From an uncultured Desulfospira sp. (GTDB lineage: Bacteria; Desulfobacterota; Desulfobacteria; Desulfobacterales; Desulfobacteraceae), in NCBI GenBank assembly GCA_963663165.1, contig OY760175.1:3584001-3648000 (forward strand): a DNA stretch of 64,000 nucleotides. The letters run 5' to 3'. Position numbers and translations under genes: made by a program. Position 1 is the stretch's first letter; each line of letters begins with the position of its first letter. This document shows positions 7,846 to 64,000 of this stretch, piece by piece. Under the pieces are notes generated by a model that searched no databases, had not been told where the DNA came from, and worked only from the letters and a program-made list of their open reading frames with translations.

Positions 7846-9432
7846 ATGAATTTTTTTAGACATCTGATATGGCTTGTCTGTTTCCTGACAGCTCTGGCGG
7901 CGGTGCCTGCCTTTGGGGCAGACAATTCCAAAATCATCATTGGCACAAGGTCAGAACCCTCCATTGACCCCCATTTCCTTTATACAGAACCCAACATCGG
8001 CTATGCCAAGCATATTTACGGCCGTCTGGTGGGCAGGGATAATGATTCCCGCAGGGAAGCCGATCTTGCTGTCTCCTGGCGGGCCATTGATGACCTCACC
8101 TGGGAGTTTAAATTAAGAAAAGGCGTCAAGTTCCAGGACGGTTCGGACTTTACAGCCGATGATGTCCTTTTTTCCATCAAGCGTATTCCCAATGTACGCA
8201 ATAATCCGGGACCCTATGCCGGGAACTTAAGGTCCGTTGTTGATGTGCAAAAGGACGGGCCCTATAAAGTTATTATCAAAACCGACAAGCCCAACCCCGT
8301 ATTGCCCACCCAGATGCACAACGTCTCCATTGTCTCCTCAAGTGTGGGTGAAGAAGTTAGAACAGAAGATTTCTCATCCGGGAAAGCGGCCATTGGTACT
8401 GGCCCGTATAAATTTGTGGAATATGTGCCCGGCGATCATCTGACCCTGGAACGGTTTGACGGCTATTGGGGACCCAAACCAAAATTCAAACGGGTGGTGT
8501 TTAAAATTATCAGCAATGATGCTGCCCGGGTGGCAGCCTTGCTGGCCGGAGATGTGGATCTCATCGATTTTGTTCCTCCCACTGAGGTGGCCCACCTGAC
8601 CAAAAATGAAAAGATCAAAATTTTCAAACGTCCGGCAGACCGGGTGATCTTTTTCCACATGGACAGCGTTCGCGATGTCTCTCCTTATGTCACCGATAAA
8701 GATGGAAAACCTCTGGCAGAGAACCCCTTGAAAGACGTGCGGGTGAGAAAGGCCCTCTCTTATGCCATCAACCGAAAAGCCATCTGCAGCCGGGTAATGG
8801 AAGGGTTGTCTGCTCCCGAAAGCCAGCTGGTGCCCACGGGATGGTTTGGCCACAGCCCAAATATTCAGGTGGATCCCTATGACCCTGAAAAGGCTGAAAA
8901 ACTTCTGACACAGGCGGGGTATCCTGACGGCTTTGGAATAACCATCCATGGACCCAACGACAGGTATGTCAACGACTATAAGGTTTGCCAGGCCGTAGCC
9001 CAGATGTTTGCCCGGATCGGTTTGAAGGTCAAAGTGGAAACCATGCCCAAAAGTGTCTACTTTGGCAGCTATGTGCCGCCTGACTCAAAATTCAGTTTTG
9101 CCATGCTGGGCTGGGGAACGTCGGCCACCTGCGAGTCCATTCACGGCCTGACAGGTTTTGTGCATACCTATAATAAGGAAAAGGGTATGGGGGCTTATAA
9201 CCTGGGCTATTCAAACCCTGACGTTGACAGGATAATTGAAGATGCGGTCACTATCGTGGATAGTGCGAAGCGTGAAAAGATGCTGAATAAGGCCATGGAA
9301 ACGGCCATGGCGGATATGGCGGCCATTCCCATGCACACCCAGTATACGGTTTCGGCAGGGCTGAAATCCGTTGATTATACGGTGCGCCCGGATGAGATGA
9401 CCTTGGCCTATAATGCGCGTCCGGCAAAATAA
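7846..9432 (+). CDS. ABC peptide/nickel-family substrate-binding protein (SBP family 5)
   Basis: Signal peptide; LAVSW, FKLRKGVKFQDG, IGTGPYKF, DVRVRKAL motifs. Confidence 0.9.
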   Translation: MNFFRHLIWLVCFLTALAAVPAFGADNSKIIIGTRSEPSIDPHFLYTEPNIGYAKHIYGRLVGRDNDSRREADLAVSWRAIDDLTWEFKLRKGVKFQDGSDFTADDVLFSIKRIPNVRNNPGPYAGNLRSVVDVQKDGPYKVIIKTDKPNPVLPTQMHNVSIVSSSVGEEVRTEDFSSGKAAIGTGPYKFVEYVPGDHLTLERFDGYWGPKPKFKRVVFKIISNDAARVAALLAGDVDLIDFVPPTEVAHLTKNEKIKIFKRPADRVIFFHMDSVRDVSPYVTDKDGKPLAENPLKDVRVRKALSYAINRKAICSRVMEGLSAPESQLVPTGWFGHSPNIQVDPYDPEKAEKLLTQAGYPDGFGITIHGPNDRYVNDYKVCQAVAQMFARIGLKVKVETMPKSVYFGSYVPPDSKFSFAMLGWGTSATCESIHGLTGFVHTYNKEKGMGAYNLGYSNPDVDRIIEDAVTIVDSAKREKMLNKAMETAMADMAAIPMHTQYTVSAGLKSVDYTVRPDEMTLAYNARPAK

Positions 9433-13381: not shown

Positions 13382-14650
13382 ATGGAATCTCTTGAAAAAA
13401 AGAAAATTGCCATCACCGGCGGCACATTAATCGACGGCACCGGCGGTGATCCTTTGCCCGATTGTAATATCACCATTGAAGCTGGCTTGATCAAAACCAT
13501 TGGACCGGATCCTGCACCCGGCGATCTATCGGGATATGAGTGCTATGATGCCCGGGGGAAAACGGTGATGCCCGGTCTTATCGATGCGCACACTCACTTA
13601 TGGGGCGTTACTTCCCTTGACACATTGACCTGGACTTTGGATCATCCATGCCTGCGCACTGCCCGGGCCAGCATGGATGTCTGGCGGCTTTTGGACAGCG
13701 GCTTTACCACGGTGCGAGATCCCGGTACTTATATCAGCATATTTCTCAGGGATGCTGTGAACGAAGGGGCTTTGCCCGGCCCCCGGATTCTCTCCGCCGG
13801 AAAGGTGATCACCCAGACCGGAGGCCACGGGGATCCCACCCATAATTTGCCCCAGTCCTGGGTGGAGGAACGGAGTATATGCCGGGTGGCCGACGGGGCC
13901 GACGACTGCCGAAGGGCTGTCAGAGAGCAGATCCGGGAAGGGGCGGATATGATCAAGATCATGACCACGGGCGGTGTCCTGTCTGACCGTGATAACCCGA
14001 AGTTTACCCAGTTCTGCCTGGAGGAGATCCAGGCCATCACCGAAGAGGCCCATGCCCGGGGTTACCTTGTGGCAAGCCACGCCCAGGGCACCAAAGGGAT
14101 AAAAAATGCCCTTCGGGGCGGGGTGGATACCATTGAACACGGTAACGGTCTGGATAACGAAGCCATAACGCTGATGCTTGATACCGGCGCTTTTTTGATT
14201 CCAACCCTGGCCGTGTTCCAGGCGCTGCTTGACGGCGGGCCGCACTGCGGGGTCAAGCCCCGGCACCTTTCAAAGGTGGAAGCCATCAAAGAAATCCACC
14301 AGAAAGCCTTTTTTACGGCCTGGAAAGCCGGGGTGAAGATCGGGCTTGGTACGGACTATCTTTTAACCCCCCAGGTTACAGGAACGGTTATGGGCAGCCA
14401 TGCAAAGGAGTTGGCGCTCTATGTCGAAGCCGGATTATCCCCCATGGATGCCTTGGTATGTGCCACCCAAAATAATGCAGCCGCCCTGGGGCTGGAAAAG
14501 ATCACCGGCACATTGGAACCGGGCAAAAGTGCGGATCTGCTCATTGTCGACGGCGATCCCCTTGGTAATATCACGGTGCTCCAGGATCCGGACAGACTGG
14601 TTCATATTTTCAAGGAAGGCTGTGTGGTGCCCAGATTGCCCCGATTATAA
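13382..14650 (+). CDS. Metal-dependent amidohydrolase (Xaa-Pro dipeptidase/carboxypeptidase-like)
   Basis: MPGLIDAHTH, GFTTVRD, GADMIK, HAQG, IEHG, LGTD. Confidence 0.85.
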   Translation: MESLEKKKIAITGGTLIDGTGGDPLPDCNITIEAGLIKTIGPDPAPGDLSGYECYDARGKTVMPGLIDAHTHLWGVTSLDTLTWTLDHPCLRTARASMDVWRLLDSGFTTVRDPGTYISIFLRDAVNEGALPGPRILSAGKVITQTGGHGDPTHNLPQSWVEERSICRVADGADDCRRAVREQIREGADMIKIMTTGGVLSDRDNPKFTQFCLEEIQAITEEAHARGYLVASHAQGTKGIKNALRGGVDTIEHGNGLDNEAITLMLDTGAFLIPTLAVFQALLDGGPHCGVKPRHLSKVEAIKEIHQKAFFTAWKAGVKIGLGTDYLLTPQVTGTVMGSHAKELALYVEAGLSPMDALVCATQNNAAALGLEKITGTLEPGKSADLLIVDGDPLGNITVLQDPDRLVHIFKEGCVVPRLPRL

Positions 14651-14695
14651 TATCATTTCTATGGGGCTATTGTCGTTAACCCGGGTTAGACTATT

Positions 14696-49983: not shown

Positions 49984-52900
49984 CGATATCCACAAAATCC
50001 TGATCATCGGAGCCGGCCCCATCATTATCAGCCAGGCCTGTGAATTTGACTACTCCGGGACCCAGGCCTGCAAGGCGCTCAAAGAAGAAGGATTTGAGGT
50101 GGTCCTGATCAACTCCAACCCGGCCACCATCATGACGGATCCGGAAACTGCCGACCGGGTCTATATTGAGCCGGTGACCTGTGAAGCCCTGTGCAAGATC
50201 ATTGAAAAAGAAAAACCCGATGCCCTGCTGCCCACCCTTGGCGGCCAGACCGCGTTGAACACGGCCCTTGAGACCGCCAAAACCGGTATCCTGGACAAGT
50301 ACAACATTGAAATGATCGGGGCCTCGGTGGCGGCCATTGAAAAGGCTGAAGACCGGGAACTGTTCCGGGACGCCATGAAAAAAATAGGGCTTCGCATTCC
50401 CAAAAGCGGGTTTGCCACCAACCTGCACGAAGTGGAAGAGGTCTCTCACCGCATTGGTTTTCCCATTATTGTCAGGCCCTCCTTTACCTTAGGCGGTACC
50501 GGCGGCGGCGTGGCCTACAACTCCGAGGAGCTGGCCAAACTCTCCAAGGCAGGCCTGGATGCCAGCCTTATCACCCAGGTCATGCTCGAAGAATCGGTCT
50601 TAGGCTGGAAAGAGTATGAGCTTGAGGTCATGCGGGACCATGCGGACAACGTGGTCATTATCTGTTCCATTGAAAACATTGACGCCATGGGGGTCCACAC
50701 CGGGGACTCCATCACCGTGGCCCCGGCCCAGACCCTGTCGGATAAAGAATACCAGCTTCTGAGGGACGCCTCCATTGCCATCATGCGGGAGATCGGCGTG
50801 GATACCGGCGGCTCCAATGTCCAGTTTGCCGTAAACCCGGAAAACGGGGACATTATTGTGGTGGAGATGAACCCCCGGGTGAGCCGCAGTTCCGCCCTGG
50901 CCTCCAAGGCCACGGGGTTTCCCATTGCCAAGATTGCCGCCAAGCTGGCCGTGGGCTACACCCTGGATGAAATTCCCAACGATATCACCGGCGAGACCAT
51001 GGCCTGTTTTGAGCCCTCCATTGACTATTGTGTCATCAAGATTCCCCGGTGGACCTTTGAAAAATTCCCAGAAACCGATGATATCCTGACCACGGCCATG
51101 AAATCCGTGGGCGAGACCATGTCCATTGGCCGGACCTTTAAAGAGGCACTCCAGAAGGGGCTGCGCTCCCTGGAAATCGGCCGGGCCGGATTCGGGGCCG
51201 ACGGAAAAGACCCGGCACCGGGCAGTGTGGCCGGAAACGAGCTGGAATACAAGCTGTCCACCCCCAATTCCCAGAGAATTTTCTATATCAAGTATGCCCT
51301 GGAACATGGCATGCCCATTACCATGATTTCCGAACTCACGGCCATTGATCCCTGGTTTCTGTACCAGATGAAGCAGATTGTTGACCTTGAAAAGCAGATC
51401 CAGCTGGCCGGCCGGGACCTGCCGCGGGAGCTGTTTGAAAAGGCCAAAAAATACGGATTTTCCGACAAGCAGCTGGCCCACCTGGCCAAACTCACGGACA
51501 AGCAGGTGGAAAAAACCAGAAAGGACTTGGGCATCGTGCCGGTGTATAAACTGGTGGACACCTGTGCCGCAGAGTTCAGGGCCACCACGCCCTATTACTA
51601 CTCCACCTATGAAAGCGAATGTGAGGCCAGGGTTTCAGACCGGAAAAAGGTCATCATCCTGGGCGGCGGCCCCAACCGCATCGGCCAGGGCATTGAGTTT
51701 GACTACTGCTGTGTCCATGCCTCCTTTGCCTTAAGGGAAGAAGGGGTGGAATCCATCATGGTCAACTCCAACCCGGAAACCGTGTCCACAGACTATGACA
51801 CCTCGGACAAGCTCTACTTTGAACCCCTGACCCGGGAAGACGTGCTTCACATTGTGGAAAAGGAAAAGCCCGACGGAGTGATTGTCCAGTTTGGGGGCCA
51901 GACCCCCCTAAACCTGGCCACGGACCTTCAAAAGGCCGGGGTTCCCATTATCGGCACCTCTCCCGAGAGCATTGACCGGGCCGAAGACCGGGATCTGTTC
52001 CAGGAGATGCTCAATAAACTGAACCTTCGCCAGCCGGACAACGGCATTGCCTTTTCCTATAACGAGGCCAAGGCCGTGGCCCGGGATATCGGGTATCCGG
52101 TAATGGTCAGGCCCTCCTTTGTCTTAGGCGGCCGGGCCATGAAGATTGTCTATGACGAGGGTGATTTGGAAGAGTTCTTTAACCTGGCCGTGGAGGCCTC
52201 CCCGGACAAACCCGTCCTCATTGACAAGTTCCTGGAAGAGGCTTTTGAGCTGGATGTGGATGCCATCTCAGACGGGCAGACCACCATTATCGGCGGCATG
52301 ATGGAACATGTGGAAGAGGCCGGAATCCACTCGGGTGACTCGGCCTGTGTCCTGCCCCCCTACTCCATCAAACGGGAACATATTGATGAAATGGCCGATG
52401 CGGCCCGGGCCATTGCCAAAGAGCTGAATGTCAAGGGGCTGATGAACATCCAGTTCGGGATCATGAATGACACGGTTTATATCATTGAGGTCAACCCCAG
52501 GGCATCCCGGACCATCCCCTTTGTCTCCAAGGCCATTGGCGTGCCTTTGGCCAAGCTGGCCACCAAAATCATGCTGGGGAAAACCTTAGATGAACTCGGC
52601 TTCACCAAAGAGGTCATCCCGCCTTATTTCTGCGTTAAAGAGGCGGTCATGCCCTTTGACCGGTTTGCCAAGGTGGATCCGGTTTTGGGACCTGAAATGA
52701 AATCCACGGGTGAGGTCATGGGCATTGATGAGGATCTGGGCGCAGCCTTTGCCAAGGCCCAGTTTGCCGCCGGCCAGAAACTGCCCAAAGAGGGCACGGT
52801 GTTCATCTCGGTCCAGGACAAGGACAAACCCGCGGCCCTGCCCGTGGCCAAGGCCTTCCATGAAATGGGGTTTACCATCATGGCCACCCGGGGAACCGCC

Positions 52901-53194
52901 ACCTTTCTGGAAGACAACAACGTTCCGGCCACCATGGTGAAAAAAGTATCCGCCGGACGGCCCAATGTGGTCGATGCCGTGAAAAACAATGAGATTCAGC
53001 TCATCCTCAACACCGGGGCCTCCAGCCAGACCCAGCGGGACGGATATGAGATCAGGCGGGCGGCCATTAAATATAAAATCCCCTATGCCACCACAACGGA
53101 CGGAACAAGGGCCATCTGCCAGGCCATCCAGGCCATGAAAAAGAAAGCCCTTTCCGTTAAACCCATCCAGGAGTATCACAAGGAAAATGTGTAA
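49970..53194 (+). CDS. carB: Carbamoyl-phosphate synthase large subunit
   Basis: [16 protein letters not shown], duplicated ATP-grasp halves, MGS domain. Confidence 0.98.
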
Positions 53195-54665
53195 GTTACC
53201 GGCAATAAAAACCCGACAGCCCGATGAGCGGCACCCCGGGTGCCCCATGGCATGCCTTAGCGAACGCCCCAAAGACGAATGCGGGGTTTTTGGCCTTTAC
53301 AAACATCCTGAGGCTGCCAAAATCACCTACTTCGGGCTTTATGCCCTCCAGCACCGGGGCCAGGAAAGTGCCGGCATCTCGGTAAACCGGGGGGTTAATG
53401 ACAAGATTTTTTCCCACAAGGGAATGGGCCTGGTGCCGGAAATTTTCAACATGGAAGACCTTGAACGGATCGAAGGCGGGTCTGCCATCGGCCATGTCCG
53501 ATACTCCACCACCGGGGACTCATGCCTGACCAATGCCCAGCCCTTTGTGGTCAACCACCGGCACAGATCCTATGCCCTGGCCCACAACGGCAACCTGGTC
53601 AATGCCCATACCATCAGGGAAGAACTTGAAGAAAAAGGCTCTATTTTCCAGACCACCATGGACTCAGAGGTGTTTCTTCATCTGTTTATCAAGAACCTGG
53701 TCAAGGGAGACTACGAGAGCGCCATTTTAAAGGCCGTGTCAAAGATTGAAGGGGCCTATTCCATGATCCTGCTCACCTGCAAGGGGGAGATCATCGGCAT
53801 GAAGGATCCCAACGGATTCCGCCCCCTGGCATTGGGCAAGCTTAACGGCCACTATGTCCTGGCCTCGGAAACCTGTGCCTTTGACCTGATCCAGGCCGAA
53901 TTTATCCGGGAGCTGGACCCCGGGGAAATCGTGATCATCAATGAAGACGGGATCAGAAGCATCCGGCACCCCAGGGCAGCCGACCATAAATCCCTGTGTA
54001 TTTTTGAATACATCTACTTTGCCCGGCCCGACTCCACCATTGACGGCAAAAATGTCTATGAGATGAGAAAGGCCCACGGCCGCCGCCTGGCCCAGGAGTC
54101 CCACGTGGACGCCGATCTGGTCATGCCCTTTCCGGATTCGGGCAACTATGCGGCCATCGGCTATGCCAAGGAATCGGGCATTCCCTTTGAAATGGGCATG
54201 ATCCGGAACCACTATGTGGGCCGAAGCTTTATCCAGCCCACCCAGTCCATGCGTGACTTTGCCGTGAGGGTCAAGCTCAATCCGGTCCGGGAGCTGATCA
54301 AGGGAAAAGATATCATTATCATTGAAGACTCCATTATACGGGGCACCACGGCTAAAACCCGGGTCAAGGCCTTAAGGGATTTAGGGGTCAAGAAGGTTCA
54401 TATGCGGATCTCATGTCCGCCCCACAGGTTCCCCTGTTATTACGGTATTGATTTTTCTTCAAAGGGGGAGCTCATTGCGGCAAGCATGTCCTTAGAGGAT
54501 CTTCGGGACTACCTGGGCCTGGATTCCCTCCACTACCTTTCCATTGAGGGCATGCTGGAAGCCTCCGGCGTTGAAAACCCGGAACAAAACTTTTGCAAGG
54601 CCTGTTTTGACGGACACTACCCGGTCCCCTTTGATCCCAATTTCACCAAGCAGTGCATGGGGTAA
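53187..54665 (+). CDS. purF: Amidophosphoribosyltransferase
   Basis: [32 protein letters not shown], Fe-S cysteines. Confidence 0.97.
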
Positions 54666-54668
54666 CCA

Positions 54669-55682
54669 TTGGTAACAAAGAAAACCGTGGCATTCTCAAA
54701 AGATGCCTGCAACCTGTTTTTCCACATTTTAACCAAGTGCAACCTGAGCTGCTCCCACTGCTATATCAATCCGGACCAGCACGGCAGCAACACCCTTGAT
54801 ATCAAGACCATCCGGGAGTGGCTTTCCCTGTTCGCCCAAAAGAACCAAAAGGCCAACGTGATTTTCCTTGGGGGCGAACCCACCCTTCACCCGGATCTTT
54901 CAGCGGCGGTTAAACAGGCCAAGGCCCTGGGGTTTGAATCCATCACCATCGACACCAACGGGTTTCTTTTCCATGATATCCTGGACAAGGTCACCCCGGA
55001 TGATCTGGATTTCATCAGCTTTTCCCTGGATGGTGCCACCAGAGCCGTCAATGACGCCTGCAGGGGAAAGGGAAGCTTTGATGCGGTGATGGCGGGGATT
55101 AAAAAGGCCAGGGATAAAGGCTTTTCCTGTTCCATGATCTATACGGTATCGGACAAAAATATTCATGAACTGTCACAGATGCCGGACCTGATAAAGCCCC
55201 TGGGACTTGACCGGTTTTTCATCCAGGTGGTGGGCTTAAGAGGGGAATCGGCAAAATCGGCCGATAATTCCGGCTCAGCCATTCACCAGGTCACCAAGGA
55301 AACCTGGCTGAACCTGATCCCGGCCACCGCAGAAAAAATTGCTCAAATGGGCATTATCGTCACCTATCCCAAGGTCTTTCTGGAACCGTCAGACCCGTTC
55401 CAGTGTGCGGCCCGGGTGGCCCAAAACTATTTTGTCTTTCCCAACGGCCGGGTCTACCAGTGCCCTATTTGCGAGGATTTTTCCCTGCACTCTTTTGACA
55501 TCATCAACAATGAACTGGTGCCGCGCCCCCCGGTCAATGAAACCGACCTGTTCAACCTGAACATCCCCGAAGGCTGCGTCATGAACAAACTGGTCCAGCC
55601 GGCAAACCTGTCCTATGATTCCCAGGGCCGCCCCCTTCACCAGATCGCCTGCTGCATGCTCAAAGAAGAGATTACTTTTTAA
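54669..55682 (+). CDS. Radical SAM protein
   Basis: CNLSCSHC, GGEP, TNG, SLDG; C-terminal Cys cluster. Confidence 0.88.
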   Translation: MVTKKTVAFSKDACNLFFHILTKCNLSCSHCYINPDQHGSNTLDIKTIREWLSLFAQKNQKANVIFLGGEPTLHPDLSAAVKQAKALGFESITIDTNGFLFHDILDKVTPDDLDFISFSLDGATRAVNDACRGKGSFDAVMAGIKKARDKGFSCSMIYTVSDKNIHELSQMPDLIKPLGLDRFFIQVVGLRGESAKSADNSGSAIHQVTKETWLNLIPATAEKIAQMGIIVTYPKVFLEPSDPFQCAARVAQNYFVFPNGRVYQCPICEDFSLHSFDIINNELVPRPPVNETDLFNLNIPEGCVMNKLVQPANLSYDSQGRPLHQIACCMLKEEITF

Positions 55683-55861
55683 GTCACCGGTTTCCCCTGA
55701 TGCCTCAGCCATTGTCGGCCTTTGTCCGTCAGGCGGTATTTTTGCTTGCTGCTTTGCGGTTTGTCCGGAAGGGTCATTTCAATTAATCCGGCTTCCAAAG
55801 CGGGAATCAAATAAGTTTTGCGAAAATGCTCATTATCTTTGAGCCCCAGGGCCTTTTTAAG

Positions 55862-56215
55862 CTATTGCCGGCTCATTTCACCAGTAACGGCAAGCAGCAG
55901 CCGGACTTCCGGGGTGACTTCCAGGGTCGCTTCCAGTGTTGAAGATCCCACTGCATCCAGGATCATCCTGAGCATGAAAGAAATAAAGGGGCCTGAGTCG
56001 GTCTGAAGGGTACTTTCCTGAATGGCCTGATAATACTCGGCCTGGTGTTCGAAGACCGGGCTTTCCGCCGGGATATCGGCGAACAGGGAATTCCATCGGG
56101 AAAGAATCAGGCTCTGCCACAGGCGCCCCATGCGGCCGTTAACGTCAGCAAACGGGTGAATGAATTCAAATTCGTAATGAAAAACCGAGCTGGCAATGAG
56201 CGGGTGGGCGTTCGT
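55862..56215 (-). pseudogene. Fic-domain gene fragment
   Basis: HPLIASSVFHYEFEFIHPFADVNGRMGR; motif Gly replaced by Val and N-terminus absent. Confidence 0.75.
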
Positions 56216-56805
56216 TACGGCAACTTTCTGACAATAAACTCGATACAGCATTCGGCCACGGGGGTGGCGGTCTGGTCCAGATGCGGCGGGAGCTTGGGGC
56301 GGTAAAAGTCTTCTATGAGTTCGATTTTGATCACCTTGATCCGGTCGCCGAAAGACTGGAGCAGTTCCATGATATTGATGGATTTATCAGACCAGGAGTT
56401 GGTTTTCTGGATGGTCATGGTCCACTTATGGTCGGGATTGAACTTTGACGGGAACACCCCCTTTTCATAGAGATCTTCATCGGGAACCGTGGTGATGATG
56501 TGGCCGCCGGGTTTTACAATCCGGATCCAGTTTTCAAAACCGATCCGGGGGTCTTCAAGGTGTTCAAGGCAGTGGCTTGAATGGACAAAATCAACGCTGT
56601 TGTCCGGGACCCCCTTCATATACTGGGCATCGCCGTCCTGCAGATCCCATGTCCGGGCCCCGGTCATTTTGGAAAACACCCCTGCATACTGCCCTAAAGG
56701 GTCAGGCTTCCCACCGATATCGATCCCGGTTCCCACAAAATACTTGTTGTGAAACTCTCCAAGATTAAACCGTCTTTTCGCGGCTTTGCTCTGTTCCCAC
56801 GGCAT
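56215..56805 (-). CDS. Class I SAM-dependent methyltransferase
   Basis: GIDIGG, DFVHSSHCLEH, RIVKPGG. Confidence 0.82.
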   Translation of the reverse strand: MPWEQSKAAKRRFNLGEFHNKYFVGTGIDIGGKPDPLGQYAGVFSKMTGARTWDLQDGDAQYMKGVPDNSVDFVHSSHCLEHLEDPRIGFENWIRIVKPGGHIITTVPDEDLYEKGVFPSKFNPDHKWTMTIQKTNSWSDKSINIMELLQSFGDRIKVIKIELIEDFYRPKLPPHLDQTATPVAECCIEFIVRKLP

Positions 56806-56904
56806 TGGATTGTCCTTTCAACCGGCCTGTGTTTGAATACTATAGTGCTGCAAACCCTTTTGACCTACCCTATCGTTTTCAACCATCAATGTCACTGGTT
56901 TATT

Positions 56905-57822
56905 TTAACCCATGCTCAGCCAGATCCCATAGGTAAAGGCCGACAAGATCGTGCAGATGGAAATGGCGGCCACGGAAAAATCGGAATCCCCGCCCATTTC
57001 CCGGGCCATGATATAGGTCAGGGTGGCCGTGGGTGAGGAGAGGATGATCAGGCCGGGCAGGTAATCCTCGGGGGCCGTCCCAAACAGTTTGAACAGCAAA
57101 AGCCCCATGGCCGGAGCCGCCATGGTTTTCAGGAAGCTGGACGCCAGGACGTTTAAAAAGCCGTGTTTGAGCTTTTCAAACGACAGGGAGGCCCCGATGA
57201 TCAGCAACGCCGTGGGAAGGGCCATGCCCTTTAAAATATCCAGGGAGCGGTCCAGGATGACCGGCAGCTTCAGGTTAAGCAGGGAAAAGATGATCCCTGA
57301 CAATGCCGACAGGATAACGGGATTGGTGATGCCGGCTTTTAAGGTGTCCATGAACCGGAAGCGCTCTTTTTCTTTGCGGTTGTGGGCCTGAAGGACTACC
57401 ACGGCCAGGATGTTCTGGACAATCATGACAAATCCGGCAATCAGGGCGGCCCGGACAAACCCGCTGTGGCCCAGGTAATAAAAGGCCACGGCAAGGCCGA
57501 TATATCCCAGATTCCCGTGAAAGGAGCAGTGAATAAAAGAGCCCCTTGACCGTCGGGGAATTTTCAACCCAATGGCCGCTGCCCATGCCACACCGGTAAT
57601 ACAGAACATGGCGGCCAGGGTGGCCAGGATAACGGTGGCATTCAGTTCAGACTTAAGAGAGGCTTTGGAAACCGCGCTGAAAATCATGGCCGGTATGGCA
57701 ATATAGTAAACCAGGCGGTTGGCCTGGTTTACAAAATCCATGGAGATAAAGTCTCTGCGCCGGGCAAAAACCCCCAGAAAGATCACGATAAAAATCGGGA
57801 TGATGGTGGCCAGGATTTCCAT
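56905..57822 (-). CDS. AEC (auxin efflux carrier/MleP) family transporter
   Basis: IPIF, YIAIPA, GNLGYIGL, NPVIL, PTA motifs; about 10 TM helices. Confidence 0.88.
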   Translation of the reverse strand: MEILATIIPIFIVIFLGVFARRRDFISMDFVNQANRLVYYIAIPAMIFSAVSKASLKSELNATVILATLAAMFCITGVAWAAAIGLKIPRRSRGSFIHCSFHGNLGYIGLAVAFYYLGHSGFVRAALIAGFVMIVQNILAVVVLQAHNRKEKERFRFMDTLKAGITNPVILSALSGIIFSLLNLKLPVILDRSLDILKGMALPTALLIIGASLSFEKLKHGFLNVLASSFLKTMAAPAMGLLLFKLFGTAPEDYLPGLIILSSPTATLTYIMAREMGGDSDFSVAAISICTILSAFTYGIWLSMG

Positions 57823-57830
57823 GGGTATCC

Positions 57831-57905
57831 TTAGGCTGTCAGGCTAAAGACTGAAGGCTGAAGGTTGCGTTCGTCACCTTCAGCCTAAACCCCTTCAGCC
57901 TAATT
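57831..57905. repeat. REP-like repeat, family E (copy 2), overlapping the ALDH stop codon
   Basis: aggctaaagactgaaggctgaagg...ccttcagcctaaaccccttcagcctaat. Confidence 0.7.
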
Positions 57906-59289
57906 TGGTTTTAATATGAAAAGACTTTGGCCGGGTCAGGTACTCATACCCCACCACAGACAGGGTGCAGCCCCGGCCGGAATTCTTAACCCCGGTCCAG
58001 CCCAGTTCCGGGTCCAGATAGTCACACCGGTTGATGAAAAGGGTCCCGGTATTCACCTGTTGCCCGAGTTCAATCCCCTTGTCATAATCTTTTGTAAAAA
58101 TAGCGGCGGTCAGGCCGAACTCACTGTCGTTCATGAGTTCTACCGCCTCCTCATCAGACGCCACCTTCTGAATTCCCACCACCGGCCCGAAACTTTCCTC
58201 GGTCATCACCCGCATGGTGTGGTTGACGCCGGTCAGAATCTGAGGGGCCAGGTAAGGGGTGCCGGCCTTGTCCATGGGGAAATTTTCGGCCTTGATATGG
58301 GCAACCGCCCCCTGTTCAATGGCTTCTTTGGTCTGCTCCCGGACAAAATCAGCGGCACTGGTCCTGACCAGGGGACCTAAGGTGGTTTCAGGATCATCAG
58401 ACCGGCCAAGCTTTAAGGCATTGACCCATGCAATGGCCTGTTCAAGGAAGTCGTCATACACATCGGCATGGACATAAACCCGTTCAATCCCGCAGCAGGA
58501 CTGGCCGGAATTGAAAAACGCGCCGTCCATGGCCGTGTCCACGGCATGGGGAAGATCGGCATCGGCCCGGACATAGGCCGGGTCCTTGCCGCCAAGTTCC
58601 AGGCCGACATTAATGAACCTTCCGGCAGCCGCCTTTTCCACCATGGCCCCGCCGGGAACAGACCCCGTAAATGCCACATGGTTGATCCGGGCATCTTTGA
58701 TGATGGCTTCGGTATCCCCATGGGTGAGGTGAAGGTACTGGAACACACCTTTGGGCAGGCCTGCCGCCTCAAAGGCCTCAAACAGGCGCTCGGCACAAAG
58801 GGGGGTCTGGGCCGAATGTTTCAAAATTACGGTGTTGCCGGCCAGGATGGCCGGGACAATGGCATTAATAGCGGTCAGATAGGGATAATTCCAGGGGGCA
58901 ATGACAAACACCGTGCCTAAGGGCTCCCGCTGAATCCACCGCTCAAACCCCTCTTTTTCATCCAGTTTCACCGGTGCAAGCCCCTGGTCCGCCAGCCGGA
59001 TCATGGCCCTTGCCCGTTCTTCCAGGCCGTTGACCTCGCCTGCCCCAAACCGGATGGGCCGCCCCATCATCCAGCAAAGTTCTTTGGCGATCTCTTCTTT
59101 TTTGGCCACAAAAGCGTCAACGGCTTTTGTGCATAAGATTTTCCGGTCTGCCAGGGCCGTGGCGGCCCAGGCGCGCTGGGCCTGTTTGGCCTGATCCAGG
59201 GTGGTTTGAATTAACCCCTGATCTGCAAAGGGCCGCTCCACATAGGCAGAATTGTCAACCGGACTGATACATACAAATGAGGATGTCAT
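57895..59289 (-). CDS. Aldehyde dehydrogenase
   Basis: PWNYP, FTGS, LELGGKDP, FNSGQSCCG, EESFGP. Confidence 0.92.
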   Translation of the reverse strand: MTSSFVCISPVDNSAYVERPFADQGLIQTTLDQAKQAQRAWAATALADRKILCTKAVDAFVAKKEEIAKELCWMMGRPIRFGAGEVNGLEERARAMIRLADQGLAPVKLDEKEGFERWIQREPLGTVFVIAPWNYPYLTAINAIVPAILAGNTVILKHSAQTPLCAERLFEAFEAAGLPKGVFQYLHLTHGDTEAIIKDARINHVAFTGSVPGGAMVEKAAAGRFINVGLELGGKDPAYVRADADLPHAVDTAMDGAFFNSGQSCCGIERVYVHADVYDDFLEQAIAWVNALKLGRSDDPETTLGPLVRTSAADFVREQTKEAIEQGAVAHIKAENFPMDKAGTPYLAPQILTGVNHTMRVMTEESFGPVVGIQKVASDEEAVELMNDSEFGLTAAIFTKDYDKGIELGQQVNTGTLFINRCDYLDPELGWTGVKNSGRGCTLSVVGYEYLTRPKSFHIKTKLG

Positions 59290-59547
59290 AACTTCACCTT
59301 TTAAAAATATCCTTAATATGGTTAGACTCAGGTTTAGCCGTCCTATCCTAAAACCGTTTGATTTGCAAGTGAAATCCATCCGGCACACAGGATTAACACG
59401 GACAAAAATTGACTCATTTTTTTGAGGAATAAACCATAAGGGCAATCTCCCGTAAAATGAAGGAAAGCCGGAGAAAAGGAAACCACAGACCGGCCCGCAG
59501 ACTTTCTGTATTCGGATATTATACCACTTGTCAGGGCTCGGCGTTTT

Positions 59548-60654
59548 TTAGATGCAGCAGCCCCTGGCCGTTATGGCTTTTCTCTCCAGGGTACCGTCAG
59601 CCCTTTGAAGGTAAAAGAAATTAAACAGGTTCATGCAAAGGGCTGCATTGACCGGGATAATGCTGATACGGTCTCCCGGGCCAGGTGGATTTTTACACCG
59701 GCTGACATCCACCCAGCCGTGCTCTTCGTGGAGCCGGCATATCCGGGCTTCGGGGTATTCACACACATATCCCATTTCCAGGGCTTCACGGCGCAGCAGC
59801 TGTTTGGCCGAAAGGCTTTTGGAGCCGGCATCTATGATCACCTGGCCCGGAACCCTGTCTGAAACAACCGTTGCCACCATGCGGGCCGCACAATCCTCAA
59901 GGGCGCAATGGTTGAACTTGGCCACAAAATAGTCATTGATATAGGCCGTTCCCACCCGAAGCTCATTGACATGGGCCACCTGGTGGGTATTGAAAAGAGA
60001 CGGGGTGGCGCCTGAAGAGACCATGGGCGGCTCAAGCCCTGCCTTGCATAAGGCGTTATAGGCCGGTTTCCATGACCGGTTAATCTGTTCAAAGCTTTCA
60101 GGGGCTGAGGCGTTGGGGCCGTACAAATGGCCCAGATAAAGCTGGATGCCTTCAAATTCAAGGTACGGGGCGTTTTGGGCGTACCTTGCAAGGGCTGTCA
60201 GTTCATCCGGGTCTGCGGTTCCGCACCGGTGGAGCCCGGCATCAAACATGACATGGATGCCGATGGTTGTATCATGGTCCATTGCGGCCCGGGACAACCA
60301 GTCCATCAGGGACCTTTCGTCAACCGCCACCCGGACGGTGTGGGTTTGGGCAAGGCCTGCGATGATCCGCACCCGTTCATCCCCGAAAGCCGGGTAGGCC
60401 ACGGTGATATCGGTGCCGGGGTGTTCGGCAAGGGCCTGGGCCTCTGTGGCCTTTGCCACCCCGATCCCTGCCCCCCCTGCGGCCAGCTGCATCCGGGTAA
60501 TGGAAAGGGATTTATGGGTTTTGACATGGGGGCGGACCCGGTAGCCGTGGGCCTTGGCATAAGAATGGATCCGGTGGATATTTTTTTCTAAAACAGATTG
60601 GTCTATGACCAGGAAGGGGGTGGGGATTTGGCGGATGTTTTTAATCGTCTCCAT
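59548..60654 (-). CDS. PLP fold-type III enzyme (alanine racemase-like; D-threonine aldolase/DSD1 family)
   Basis: TPFLVID, RPHVKTHK (PLP lysine), HRCG, GATP, ELRVG, DAGSKSL, EEHG. Confidence 0.85.
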   Translation of the reverse strand: METIKNIRQIPTPFLVIDQSVLEKNIHRIHSYAKAHGYRVRPHVKTHKSLSITRMQLAAGGAGIGVAKATEAQALAEHPGTDITVAYPAFGDERVRIIAGLAQTHTVRVAVDERSLMDWLSRAAMDHDTTIGIHVMFDAGLHRCGTADPDELTALARYAQNAPYLEFEGIQLYLGHLYGPNASAPESFEQINRSWKPAYNALCKAGLEPPMVSSGATPSLFNTHQVAHVNELRVGTAYINDYFVAKFNHCALEDCAARMVATVVSDRVPGQVIIDAGSKSLSAKQLLRREALEMGYVCEYPEARICRLHEEHGWVDVSRCKNPPGPGDRISIIPVNAALCMNLFNFFYLQRADGTLERKAITARGCCI

Positions 60655-61480
60655 AATCGTCTTTAACCCGTGGTTCGGTTTTGACCACAAAAATGGAGGT
60701 GTTGTTTACCGGGGGATTGGGCCGGACCCGGGTGATCTCCTTAAATCCTGCCGGCAGCTTGAAATCAGCCCCGGCATCCAAAAACCTTCGCAGACCCTTT
60801 TCATAAATCCGGTAGGAAAGGGTGGCGCCTTTGTCAAGTACCTTTAAAAGATGCTCAAAGATCTCCTCTTTGGGGCGGGCATCGGCACCGATCATGATCA
60901 GCTGGCAGGGATCGGCCAGTGGCAGGGAAAAATGGTTGCCGCCGATAATGCGGATCTGCCGGTCAAGGTCCAGGGCATGGATCAGCTGCCGGGACAGGTC
61001 CGCATATTCCCGGCATTGTTCAATGCCGATGCCAAGGATCTGGTACCGGGCACACAGGCTGATCAGGGTCAACGGCAGGGGGCCGCTGCCCAGAAAAACC
61101 ACCCGGTCGCCGGAAGACAGATTTGCCCCGGTATATTCCATCCGGGCAAGCTCCAGGTAATTGGGATAATACACAAACTGTTTGATGGCCTCCCAGGGGG
61201 CGGCCGAATCAATCAGGTCCCGGGCATGGCGCAGTTCCAGGCGCAGTCCGTTGGTTCTTTTGAGCAGGGAAATATGGGCCAGGGCCGGTTGAAGCACGGG
61301 ATCAGCCCGCAGGATCTGTGCCCGGCAGTCATCCATGTCCATTGCCGCCATGCGGTCCAGCCGGCTGAAAAAGGGATAGGCCTCTTCATGCCGGCCCTCA
61401 AGCAAAGACTCCGGATCAATATGGGCCAGGGCATCATAAATATCAAGCACCTCTTTTTTGATAACATCCAGATCAACCAT
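60641..61480 (-). CDS. Nicotianamine synthase family protein, paralog B
   Basis: PW...FVYYPNYLELARME, FLGSGPLPLT, VNNTS. Confidence 0.85.
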   Translation of the reverse strand: MVDLDVIKKEVLDIYDALAHIDPESLLEGRHEEAYPFFSRLDRMAAMDMDDCRAQILRADPVLQPALAHISLLKRTNGLRLELRHARDLIDSAAPWEAIKQFVYYPNYLELARMEYTGANLSSGDRVVFLGSGPLPLTLISLCARYQILGIGIEQCREYADLSRQLIHALDLDRQIRIIGGNHFSLPLADPCQLIMIGADARPKEEIFEHLLKVLDKGATLSYRIYEKGLRRFLDAGADFKLPAGFKEITRVRPNPPVNNTSIFVVKTEPRVKDDYGDD

Positions 61481-61521
61481 GAACACCCTTTCCCTTTTTG
61501 CTTTTACTTAGCCCACCGCCT

Positions 61522-61668
61522 GTGTTTGGACAAAAAATTGCCCAGATGCAAGGCGTAACCTAAAGGTCAGAAACCAGGAAAATGTGCAACCGGAGCAACC
61601 TTTGGGGTTGTGAGGATTGCAGATTTTCCTGCAACGCAGCAGATGGGTGATTTTTCGTCCAAACACTA
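61522..61668. repeat. Family B repeat (inverted copy) between the two NAS genes
   Basis: gtgtttggacaaaaa...ttttcgtccaaacacta; reverse complement of the 14696..14824 region. Confidence 0.75.
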
Positions 61669-62550
61669 CTTATCGTCAACTTGCATAAAAACCGTGGTAT
61701 TATTGACCCTTCCGGTCGGGGCAATGGCCTGGACGATTTTAAACCCCTTGATATCCTCCGGCTGAACCGGCTTGTACAGCACGGCCTTCATGCCGGTGTA
61801 GGTGCGGAAAATCACCGGGGCCGGCCCCCGTTTTTTCAAGACGTTTAACAGGCTTTCAAAAATCCTGGCCTTAGGCTCGGCCAGGGCCGCCACCAGCATG
61901 ACATCCCAGTCCAGGTCCCCAAGGCCGGCATCATCGCCTTGAACAATCTCAATCTCTTTTTCAAGGCCCAGGCAGCTGATTACTTTTCTGGAGAGTGCCA
62001 CGGTTTCCGGATTGCTGTCAATCCCAATGGACCGGATACCGAAAAAATGGCTCATGAGGATCAAGGTCAATGGCACCGGGCCGGACCCTAAAAATGCCAG
62101 CTTTTTTTCAGGGGAGACGTGCATGGCCTCAATCTGATTTTTGACCAGGGCTTCATACCGGGGATAAAGGGGAAATTCGCTCAGATGCTGCCAGGGATCT
62201 TTGGCGGCAATAAGCTCTTTGGCCAGGTGGACCTCATGGATGCTGAAAAAGGTGGTGTAGTAGGAACGGATCAGGGGAAGCTCCTGGCGGATCTCTTTTT
62301 CGTCCAGGAGCAGCCCTGAAAGGTGGGTTCCGGCGTCCATGTGGGCCAGGTCATCCAGGATCTGGTACATCCGGTACAGCTCTTCGGGAGCAAGGGCCTT
62401 TAACATATCAGGGGAATAATGCCGGATCTTATCGGCAAATCCCATGATATGGGGTTTAATGATGGCAAGGCTGTTCTGGCAGTCTTTGCAGCACCCCAGA
62501 AAATCATGCTCCTTGAGCTCATGTTCGTGGAAAAAATTAATCTCGTGCAT
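61666..62550 (-). CDS. Nicotianamine synthase family protein, paralog A
   Basis: FPLYPRY, FLGSGPVPLT, DVMLVAALAEPK, RTYTGM, VNNTT. Confidence 0.88.
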   Translation of the reverse strand: MHEINFFHEHELKEHDFLGCCKDCQNSLAIIKPHIMGFADKIRHYSPDMLKALAPEELYRMYQILDDLAHMDAGTHLSGLLLDEKEIRQELPLIRSYYTTFFSIHEVHLAKELIAAKDPWQHLSEFPLYPRYEALVKNQIEAMHVSPEKKLAFLGSGPVPLTLILMSHFFGIRSIGIDSNPETVALSRKVISCLGLEKEIEIVQGDDAGLGDLDWDVMLVAALAEPKARIFESLLNVLKKRGPAPVIFRTYTGMKAVLYKPVQPEDIKGFKIVQAIAPTGRVNNTTVFMQVDDK

Positions 62551-62582
62551 GGGTCATCCCTAAAAATTGGGGCGCCGGAATA

Positions 62583-63206
62583 CTATTCTTCCTTCCGGCG
62601 GGATTTAAAGTACAGAAAAATCCCCATAAGGCCGAATATGTATCCGATTCCCCCGATAATTTCACTGGGTCCCGGGCCATGTTCGCTCAAATCCGCCACC
62701 ATTTTGGTCAGGGGGGTGATTTTTTTGTTCAAGGATGTTTCCACCGCTTTTTGGACAATGGCTTCAAGTTCTGCTTTATCAATAGAGGGAGCCGTCTCTT
62801 TTGCAGGCGGTGGCGGGGCATCAGCTGCGGCCCCCTGGGACTTATCCGAACCTGCCGCCGGTACGGCATCCTCCGGAATATCCTCAAGGGCAATGGTCCA
62901 CTCTGCCTTGTGCCCCATCCCGGCCAGCAGCTCAATACGCATGGCCGTCCGTTTGGGGAGGGCAAATGAAAACTCCCCGTTATCATCGGTTTTGGTGCGC
63001 AGCAGCTCATTGCCCTGGGTGTCCCATACGATCACTTCCGAGCCCTGGGGTCTTTTTCCGCCGCTGAACTTGCTTTCTCCCAATACCTTATTGCCTTCCA
63101 CCCAGGCAAAAACCGTTACTTTATGGGCCAGGGCAGTGCCGGAAAAAAGAATAAAACAAACCAATAAACAGAATATCGTCACACCATATTTTTGCTTCAT
63201 CGTCAC
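62583..63206 (-). CDS. CbiL/NikL-like accessory component of a Ni/Co ECF transporter
   Basis: Signal peptide, AHKVTVFA, TDDNGEF, AGMGH, C-terminal TM GGIGYIFGL; adjacent to cbiM. Confidence 0.75.
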   Translation of the reverse strand: MTMKQKYGVTIFCLLVCFILFSGTALAHKVTVFAWVEGNKVLGESKFSGGKRPQGSEVIVWDTQGNELLRTKTDDNGEFSFALPKRTAMRIELLAGMGHKAEWTIALEDIPEDAVPAAGSDKSQGAAADAPPPPAKETAPSIDKAELEAIVQKAVETSLNKKITPLTKMVADLSEHGPGPSEIIGGIGYIFGLMGIFLYFKSRRKEE

Positions 63207-63270
63207 TTCCTATCTGCGCAGGCAGCTGTTTGAAAAGCCAAGCGCGTGTTATTAACGTTTACCCCGGAGT

Positions 63271-63903
63271 CTAACCCAATTCCTGTCTGTTTACGGGTGC
63301 CGGACCCCATTGGGGCAGCAGCTCGGGCCTGACTTTTTTCAAAAACCCCACGCAGGATCCGGTCACCACGCCTTCAATAACCATGACCGGCAGATGGGCA
63401 ACCACAACGGCACAGGCCACTTCAAAGAAATTTTCTTCAGTAAACATGAGGCTGACCGCCACCAGGATGCTGGTTAAGAAAACACTTAAAAAGCCGCAGG
63501 CAAACGACGCGGCAAAAGAAACGGTTCCGCTCTTATGGATAAAAGAGCCGAACAGATAATAACAGATTACGGCGGGCCCTGCGACGTTGACCGTATTGAC
63601 GCCAAGGGTGGTAATTCCCCCAAACTGGAACAGCACCCCCTGGAGCAGCAGGGCAATCAGTATGGCGGGAAAAGCGGCCCACCCCAGCAAAAGCCCTAAA
63701 ATTCCGTTAAGAATCAGGTGGACGCTTGAGGGGCCCACCGGCACATGAATTAAGGACGCCACAAAAAATGCCGCCGACAAAATAGCGGCCTGGGGAACTT
63801 CATCTTCTTTGAGTTTTTTCAGTCCGATCACGGTTCCGGCGGCCGCAATGGCCATGCCGACACCCAGTACGGGAGCTGAAAGAACACCTTCTGAAATATG
63901 CAT
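63271..63903 (-). CDS. cbiM: Cobalt/nickel ECF transporter substrate component
   Basis: MHISEG N-terminus, SSVHL, FGGITTLGVN. Confidence 0.92.
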   Translation of the reverse strand: MHISEGVLSAPVLGVGMAIAAAGTVIGLKKLKEDEVPQAAILSAAFFVASLIHVPVGPSSVHLILNGILGLLLGWAAFPAILIALLLQGVLFQFGGITTLGVNTVNVAGPAVICYYLFGSFIHKSGTVSFAASFACGFLSVFLTSILVAVSLMFTEENFFEVACAVVVAHLPVMVIEGVVTGSCVGFLKKVRPELLPQWGPAPVNRQELG

Positions 63904-63919
63904 AATACCTTCTTGTTTT

Positions 63920-63990
63920 TTAGCTGTTAGCTATTAGCTGTTAGCCGTTAGCCAGCTGATAGCCGTGGCCAGCCGATAGCAGTTAGCCGG
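63920..63990. repeat. Degenerate heptamer tandem repeat (TAGCTGT-like)
   Basis: tagctgt tagctat tagctgt tagccgt tagcc... Confidence 0.8.
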
Positions 63991-64000
63991 CCGAGACGGT

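Follow-up and report, generated by a model that had tools for sequence, protein, structure and literature searches.

The 64,000-nt stretch of an uncultured Desulfospira sp. genome analysed here (contig OY760175.1, positions 3,584,001 to 3,648,000; below, the window) carries two neighbouring genes of the nicotianamine synthase (NAS) family, NAS-A and NAS-B, which represent a real, conserved and, it appears, so far unstudied variant of nicotianamine-like pathways. The conserved unit is this pair, not the five-gene operon in which it lies, and NAS-B adjoins NAS-A in 143 of 147 informative loci. The pair, usually found near metal-uptake genes, likely builds an undescribed small metal chelator that would help anaerobes to handle scarce nickel (Ni) or cobalt (Co). 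It is very probable that the product is some aminobutyryl-based chelator. As for the route, about an even chance is given to a relay in which NAS-A and NAS-B would perform two aminobutyryl transfers at Ni/Co shortage, yielding a thermonicotianamine-like chelator whose terminal amino group would be edited by a pyridoxal phosphate (PLP) enzyme encoded next to them.

An earlier reading of the letters alone (below, the sequence-only reading) had named five co-oriented genes at 59548-63903. Their positions and names are borne out by the map of minus-strand open reading frames (ORFs) and by profile searches (Pfam, NCBI-type families). The features, with the expectation (E) values of these searches, are:

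63271..63903, minus strand: cbiM/nikM, S component of a Ni/Co energy-coupling factor (ECF) transporter (PF01891, E 4e-60; NF004905 above cut-off)
62583..63206, minus strand: nikL-family ECF subunit (NF058648, NikL family, E 4.4e-57, above cut-off; likely start ATG 63200 by ribosome-binding context)
61666..62550, minus strand: NAS-A, 294 aa (PF03059, E 1.3e-28; E106/Y132, Y98 and R131 kept)
62479..62550, minus strand: His/Cys N-terminal tail of NAS-A (residues 1-24), predicted from composition to bind metal
61520..61665, no strand given: 146-bp repeat with inverted ends, of miniature inverted-repeat transposable element or repetitive extragenic palindrome (MITE/REP) type, between NAS-A and NAS-B
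60641..61486, minus strand: NAS-B, 281 aa (PF03059, E 1.4e-30; E84/Y110, G80 and E117 kept)
59548..60654, minus strand: fold-III PLP enzyme of the DSD1/D-threonine-aldolase family, 368 aa (PF01168 and PF14031; K45 kept)

Both NAS genes score above the Pfam cut-off of 27.1 bits for PF03059 (100.6 bits for NAS-A, 107 for NAS-B) and are 32% identical to each other, in agreement with the two divergent paralogues that had been claimed. The 14-bp overlap of NAS-B with the PLP gene likewise holds, given an ATG at 60654. No further PF03059 gene is present in the whole genome, and only one strong copy of the PLP gene. The 146-bp repeat is a passenger and no part of the system: 69 genome hits (self included) span 70% or more of the 179 bp that separate NAS-A from NAS-B, which puts the repeat at about 69 copies, and in relatives the two genes mostly overlap. 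The nearest named relatives are Desulfospira and Desulfobacter.

Conservation and phylogeny of the NAS pair

Loci around NAS-A relatives were taken from genomes (79) and metagenomes (80), representing the best 80 of 84 and the best 80 of 102 matches, respectively; together with the locus of the window they make 160. Presence of NAS-B was scored on domain coordinates, and 13 loci end too early for a call, leaving the 147 informative ones. Merging at 90% identity gives 89 clusters. The 143 adjoining pairs comprise 140 with NAS-B directly after NAS-A and 3 in reverse order or with a longer overlap. Direct adjacency is seen in 81 of the 89 clusters, and the two reading frames overlap in 62 of these 81, in 46 cases by 4 bp (starts picked by script). 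Of the joint conservation expected for the whole cluster, the part that stands concerns the NAS pair and, as an optional member, the PLP gene, while the ECF genes are no fixed part of it (counts below).

NAS-A lacks an adjoining NAS-B in 4 informative loci, so it can stand alone. Locus records are labelled L below, L001 covering the window end and the DNA beyond it and the other numbers further loci; G000 is the genome of the window. In L073, which belongs to Pirellulales, and in L170, nikR directly follows NAS-A and NAS-B is missing.

The pair is carried by Desulfobacterales, Desulfatiglandales, Desulfobulbaceae, one spirochaete, Auribacterota, Methanotrichaceae and Methanosarcina; cultured carriers include Desulfospira joergensenii, Desulfobacter curvatus, Desulfonema magnum, Desulfosarcina variabilis and Methanosarcina. 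Its spread is patchy: with the own genome counted, NAS exceeds the cut-off in 5 of 61 near relatives, in 13 of the 351 order genomes and in 7 of 401 in the phylum sample. A quick maximum-likelihood tree built from 122 proteins has one branch (starred; 97) that parts NAS-A from NAS-B, with bacteria and archaea on each side; judged by this tree, NAS-A and NAS-B are two separate old clades. The pairwise identities seen within NAS-A correlate with those within NAS-B (rho 0.77; 2882 pairs, which are not independent).

Two Methanosarcina genomes show altered NAS genes. NAS-A is broken into two frames in one of them (L091, 9899-10791), and another carries a decayed extra NAS fragment (L087, about 14254-14655) as well as a separate single NAS gene elsewhere.

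Active sites of the two NAS paralogues

That NAS-A and NAS-B are NAS-family enzymes and not ordinary methyltransferases, as the sequence-only reading had it, is supported by sequence, by the catalytic residues and, for NAS-A, by fold. The best solved relative of both is MtNAS of Methanothermobacter thermautotrophicus (E 1e-47 for NAS-A and 2e-29 for NAS-B), and the likeness to CntL is remote (6e-8 and 2e-4, far under the NF033601 cut-off). The NAS-A model, with a mean predicted local distance difference test (pLDDT) value of 90.7, superposes on MtNAS 3FPE with a template modelling (TM) score of 0.92, the root-mean-square deviation being 1.9. The best matches in the structure search are MtNAS and CntL, and the first ordinary methyltransferase follows at a TM score of about 0.42. 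The structure model covers NAS-A; the MtNAS likeness of NAS-B comes from sequence comparison only.

According to PMC10491745, E81 and Y107 of MtNAS deprotonate the acceptor amine, and two transfer rounds take place onto glutamate. This Glu/Tyr pair is kept as E106/Y132 in all 88 aligned NAS-A rows and as E84/Y110 in all 78 NAS-B rows. Four further positions, in MtNAS numbering, tell the paralogues apart. Position 73 is Tyr in 88 of 88 NAS-A rows (Y98), versus Lys in 61 and Arg in 17 of the 78 NAS-B rows; position 77 is Phe in 86 of 88 versus Gly in 67 of 78 (G80); position 106 is an invariant Arg (R131) versus an invariant Asn (78/78); and position 114 is Gln in 84 of 88 versus Glu in 78 of 78 (E117). 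The full MtNAS residue set at these positions is kept by neither paralogue, each retaining a different part of it. NAS-A is the one closer to MtNAS, and NAS-B has an extra inserted conserved residue, Glu229. By our own alignment mapping, along an unbroken helix, MtNAS 73 and 77 correspond to C69 and E73 of AtNAS1, which, according to PMC10248798, lie near the reaction chamber, with E73Q killing activity. From these alignments, both proteins look active as aminobutyryl TRANSFERASES, and their pockets differ.

Some 25 additional residues, among them H2, H8, H10, C20, C21 and C24, stand at the N-terminus of NAS-A. The CCxxC motif (20-24) is present in 81 of 89 clusters, with 1 cut and 7 lacking it; Methanosarcina NAS-A proteins have no His/Cys tail. 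Model confidence is low for residues 1-20, and an ESM Atlas search with the tail returned no usable match. The tail may bind Ni or Co and tune activity.

In the proposed relay, NAS-A would add the first aminobutyryl unit, from S-adenosylmethionine (SAM), to an amino-acid starter, which the analogy with MtNAS suggests to be Glu-like. The chamber of NAS-A, bulkier because Phe takes the place of Gly77, may halt it after one round, and NAS-B, which keeps Gly77 and Glu114 and has a basic residue at 73, would extend the intermediate. Such a route would need no opine dehydrogenase.

The two enzymes might also act in parallel, each with its own product, or one of them might be a regulatory or scaffold subunit, with no relay at all. 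Catalytic residues intact in both proteins would suit parallel action, as would the fact that NAS-A keeps most of the MtNAS-like motifs and is able to stand without NAS-B. However, near-obligate adjacency, frame overlaps and divergence mirrored across two domains of life make a shared intermediate the easier explanation, and the unbroken Glu/Tyr pair in every NAS-B row argues against a dead subunit. These readings without a relay are considered distinctly unlikely. A complex prediction for NAS-A with NAS-B scored 0.00 (mark 0.32) and was counted neither for nor against.

The PLP enzyme

The PLP enzyme is a dedicated, optional partner of the NAS pair. Among 112 informative loci, its gene comes after NAS-B in 60 and has another place within the locus in 3; it is missing from the other 49. 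Among the 351 Desulfobacterales genomes of the order sample, an orthologue is found in 11 of the 13 NAS-bearing genomes versus 0 of the 338 NAS-free ones. These 11 orthologues are 58-68% identical and each stands beside NAS genes, one being partial with a stop; in the two NAS genomes without one, NAS lies at a contig end. In the phylum sample, no orthologue occurs in any of 400 other genomes, including 6 other NAS-pair genomes, and 32 of the others hold just distant family members of at most 32% identity.

With regard to family, the enzyme forms its own clade within the DSD1/D-threonine-aldolase family. The top match of its model (pLDDT 90.6) is D-threonine aldolase 4V15 (TM 0.89). The alanine racemase profile TIGR00492 gives 35 bits versus a cut-off of 168, and an ESM Atlas search returned the generic family. 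The sequence-only reading had taken it for a fold-III enzyme of a kind that normally acts on D-amino acids. The fold assignment is confirmed, but the enzyme is no standard D-amino-acid aldolase or dehydratase. D-threonine aldolase and the dehydratases require a metal bound to His347 and Asp349 or Cys (AxDTA numbering; PMC4401734). These ligand positions are replaced in 120 of 120 relatives, by Asn, Ala or Ser and by Ser, Ala or Thr (here N336 and A338), so the protein is no standard DSD1-family member. The aldolase base His193 corresponds to a conserved Gly179. Invariant in all 120 are K45 (the PLP lysine), K279, K284, H309, E310, E311 and H312.

Within the relay, the PLP enzyme would bind the free terminal amino group of the product as an aldimine, most likely to epimerise or deaminate it. 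It might instead act first, as an analogue of CntK, and supply a starter in D- or some other altered form, while genomes that lack the gene would use the L-form. The pattern of an optional third gene resembles CntK, whose presence decides between D- and L-His according to PMC7438024 and 10.1101/641969; fold III is the alanine-racemase fold; and the loop from the second protomer (AxDTA 319-323 in PMC4401734) holds the invariant H309, E310, E311 and H312, possible second bases. However, among the structural matches of the model, aldolases and dehydratases (E 7e-32) come far ahead of alanine racemases (E 8e-18, TM about 0.69). Moreover, the NAS-A pocket residues Y98, F102, H105, R131 and Q139 are the same in 42 clusters with and 25 clusters without the PLP gene, which leans towards action on the product and away from supply of a D-starter. 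A PLP-first order is considered unlikely. Alignment columns that differ with presence of the PLP gene were not taken as co-evolution, being confounded with ancestry.

A degradative role would have the enzyme eliminate the terminal arm of the chelator for metal release or carbon recycling after uptake. Members of its family are eliminating enzymes, and in two Desulfobacter genomes (L235, L236) the gene has moved off the pair and adjoins a methyltransferase gene; one of the two genomes has a probable TonB-receptor gene next. Non-producers would be expected to have such an enzyme too, and the absence of orthologues from the NAS-free genomes of the order sample and from all the other genomes of the phylum sample leans against simple breakdown, making it improbable. 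Editing of the product by the PLP enzyme is the reading kept here.

Other enzyme genes were seen near the pair. Where this lineage lacks the PLP gene (L037 and L122, 11867-13953; L209), an alanine-dehydrogenase gene comes after NAS-B, followed in L037 and L122 by a gene of the nucleoside phosphorylase/methylthioadenosine (MTA)-nucleosidase family. A class I methyltransferase family, possibly a further tailoring enzyme, lies near NAS-A in 11 of 89 clusters, Methanosarcina included, and also beside the displaced PLP gene (L027, L050, L098, L121, L124, L087, L091, L235 and L236; in G000 at about 346, 3789, 3790 and 5357 kb). One copy in the genome of the window carries the leader motif described below.

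Metal context and relation to known systems

Metal context was scored in the 35 clusters with at least 18 kb of sequence, using queries drawn from the same loci. A metal-uptake gene lies within 10 kb in 27 of these 35 versus 34 of 322 windows of the own genome, and a Ni/Co ECF or NikR gene in 20 of 35 versus 7 of 322. Over all 89 clusters, many of them short contigs, the counts are 45 and 28, respectively. The transport partners vary, including cbiMQO/DUF4198, TonB receptors, FecCD-type ATP-binding cassette (ABC) importers, FmdE, NikR and FeoB, and cbiM/nikM is a variable partner outside the conserved core.

As for the ECF Ni/Co transporter claimed for the operon, its M and L subunits (cbiM/nikM and nikL) are present and the metal-uptake context is mostly Ni/Co, but the T component and ATPase genes, cbiQ and cbiO, are absent from the operon. 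They follow nikL in close relatives (L014, L016, L017 and L018), and another part of the genome (G000, about 1.977-1.980 Mb) holds a second ECF set in which M, L, Q and O are all present. The operon of the closest relative, L013 (8472-9065), is likewise without cbiQ/cbiO and has a cbiM frame shorter by 12 residues. CbiM/NikM transports free metal ions and is not known to carry chelates. In the proposal, the ECF genes would be co-regulated neighbours, and carriage of the chelate by ECF is no part of it. The AEC transporter gene at 56905, named earlier as a speculative exporter, is confined to this locus: it occurs in none of the 159 others, of which 68 extend 5 kb or more downstream. As no exporter is linked to the pair, the place of action may as readily be the cell interior, where the product would buffer metal for Ni/Co enzymes, as the outside.

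The operon begins outside the window, where two more features lie:

L001 8037-8816, minus strand: DUF4198 (nikK-like) gene, the sixth of the operon, directly beyond the window end and upstream of cbiM
L001 about 8855-8960, minus strand: leader (two hairpin-like repeats, one terminator-like site), beyond the window end and before the DUF4198 gene

The two small repeats are kept in close relatives; the hairpins have an A(C/U)GAA loop and are followed by the terminator. About 14 similar sites in the own genome precede genes for TonB receptors, FecB/FecCD, a methyltransferase, and aspartase-like and rubrerythrin-like proteins (names assigned by eye). With a T tract required, 9 of 20 motif sites precede metal-uptake-type genes versus 1.1% of random positions, the pattern having been tuned after looking; among all motif matches in the own genome the count is 11 of 122. 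The leader folds weakly better than shuffles (z -1.72), and a loose form of the motif stands directly upstream of NAS-A in 7 of 86 clusters. At the gathering score, Rfam had no match at positions 50000-64000 of the window and none in 7 loci, with weak terminator-like matches in the leader. Scans for promoters and terminators gave, overall, no more than chance would.

The metal context also bears on whether the product is a chelator at all. Aminocarboxypropyl transfer followed by PLP decarboxylation, as in MccD/MccE, could give a polyamine-like or other metabolite, or the two NAS proteins could be plain methyltransferases. Transfer plus decarboxylation has a precedent (PMC10491745), the PLP enzyme weakly matches LysA (E 0.002) and NspC (E 0.023), and some loci are without metal genes. 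The structural best matches, however, are MtNAS and CntL for NAS-A and aldolases and dehydratases, no decarboxylases, for the PLP enzyme, and the metal-uptake context is strongly enriched; this reading is considered very improbable.

Several observations weigh against the chelator relay or narrow it. In none of the counts are related loci and genomes independent, and the four loci with NAS-A alone break the pairing. Of the 112 informative loci, 49 lack the PLP gene, and when ten genomes from such loci were searched whole, it was found elsewhere in 3 and not found in 7. The relay, the order of its steps and the starter are read from a small set of aligned positions, and its chemistry, its product and the expression of the genes at Ni/Co shortage are predictions. 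Metal-context counts are biased upward because the queries came from these loci, and even so 8 of the 35 long clusters have no metal-uptake gene by the queries used. The metal is perhaps not Ni or Co everywhere, given the TonB receptors, FecCD-type ABC importers and FeoB nearby. No recurring exporter was seen among the 194 neighbour proteins scanned, with one protein of the major facilitator superfamily (MFS) in one locus.

A bolder version of the relay would make it an old, CntM-free, two-enzyme Ni/Co-chelator route of sulfate reducers and acetate-using methanogens that would free or hold these metals in sulfidic habitats, in which the NAS-A tail would be a built-in metal sensor that stops synthesis and the PLP enzyme a metal-free editor of the finished chelator with a new function; in this full form it is rather doubtful.

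Some features nearby touch none of these subjects. Short dispersed intergenic repeats lie at window positions 63904-64000 (88 blast hits in the genome; 7-base units) and 57823-57900 (16 hits), and a Fic-domain fragment of 129 aa at 55862-56251 is probably a remnant. Upstream of the operon (L001, 9188-10570) are small exported proteins with a VPVP..L.L.G.G sorting-like tail (PEP-CTERM-like, by eye). L002 (3943-20000) holds a giant ORF of more than 3900 aa (fibronectin/YD-repeat, RHS-type) with a 1400-aa partner. Two candidate members of the system were dropped: an aldehyde dehydrogenase, with a single 26% match in other loci, and a 196-aa methyltransferase found at the own locus only.

Sulfate reducers and methanogens rely on Ni and Co enzymes and cofactors such as CO dehydrogenase/acetyl-CoA synthase, hydrogenases, F430 and corrinoids, and the sulfide of their habitats precipitates both metals. 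How they secure Ni and Co is, to our knowledge, poorly understood, and the NAS pair is a defined, testable candidate for this task that is present in cultured strains. The PLP clade, in turn, may hold a new reaction in a family used for biocatalysis.

In databases, the single genes already bear the labels nicotianamine synthase and alanine racemase. No paper was found that deals with NAS genes in tandem, with NAS of sulfate reducers or with NAS alongside a fold-III enzyme; the family survey by Laffont and Arnoux (2020), outside that check, may mention such loci. The main text of the survey in PMC7438024, which is anchored on CntM, has no mention of "Desulfo" or "archaea" in the part available. 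The same holds for "Desulfo" in the accessible part of the PMC10248798 supplement, which has one M. barkeri sequence with NAS-B motifs. This protein, "MbNAS" of Methanosarcina barkeri (WP_048107174.1), resembles NAS-B in the part of its sequence shown there; in contrast to the present assignment, it is listed in the tree of that paper as a plain archaeal NAS-like sequence, with partner or function unmentioned in the portion available.

The PLP enzyme shares with the DSD1/D-threonine aldolase family (AxDTA 4V15, BhcC 6QKB, chicken D-serine dehydratase 3ANU and D-threo-3-hydroxyaspartate dehydratase 3WQC) the two-domain fold III (TM 0.83-0.89), the PLP lysine motif and the EH-containing loop. 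It differs in its identity of at most about 30%, in the replaced His347 and Asp349/Cys, in Gly for His193 and in invariant Lys/Gln/His positions of its own.

Similar to the Cnt metallophore systems (staphylopine, pseudopaline, yersinopine and bacillopaline; CntK/L/M), an aminobutyryl transferase of NAS type lies beside metal import with an optional third enzyme. In those clusters the NAS gene lies directly upstream of cntM and an exporter (MFS, EamA or MatE) within six genes. Here, NAS-A is followed by NAS-B and the PLP enzyme, CntM is absent from beside them, none of these exporter types recurs, the likeness to CntL is only remote, and the optional enzyme is PLP-dependent and of fold III. The absence of a CntM-like gene from the window, noted in the sequence-only reading, stands; PF10100 (CntM) is also absent from the 194 neighbour proteins, and genome searches for CntM/octopine dehydrogenase gave PF10100 in 0 of 1 and 0 of 5 genomes and PF02317 in 0 of 1, control genomes being equally silent.

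The closest known system is MtNAS (3FPE, 3FPG and 3O31), with which the pair shares the fold (for NAS-A), the catalytic Glu/Tyr, the Gly-rich SAM loop, the C-terminal NN motif and independence of CntM. In MtNAS, however, a single enzyme runs both rounds, whereas here two paralogues with differing chamber residues occur almost always together, NAS-A has its His/Cys tail of about 25 residues, and the PLP enzyme often follows the pair. If true, the relay would be a third design among nicotianamine-like pathways, besides the iterative single enzyme and CntL with CntM, and would reveal the chamber residues that fix the number of extension rounds.

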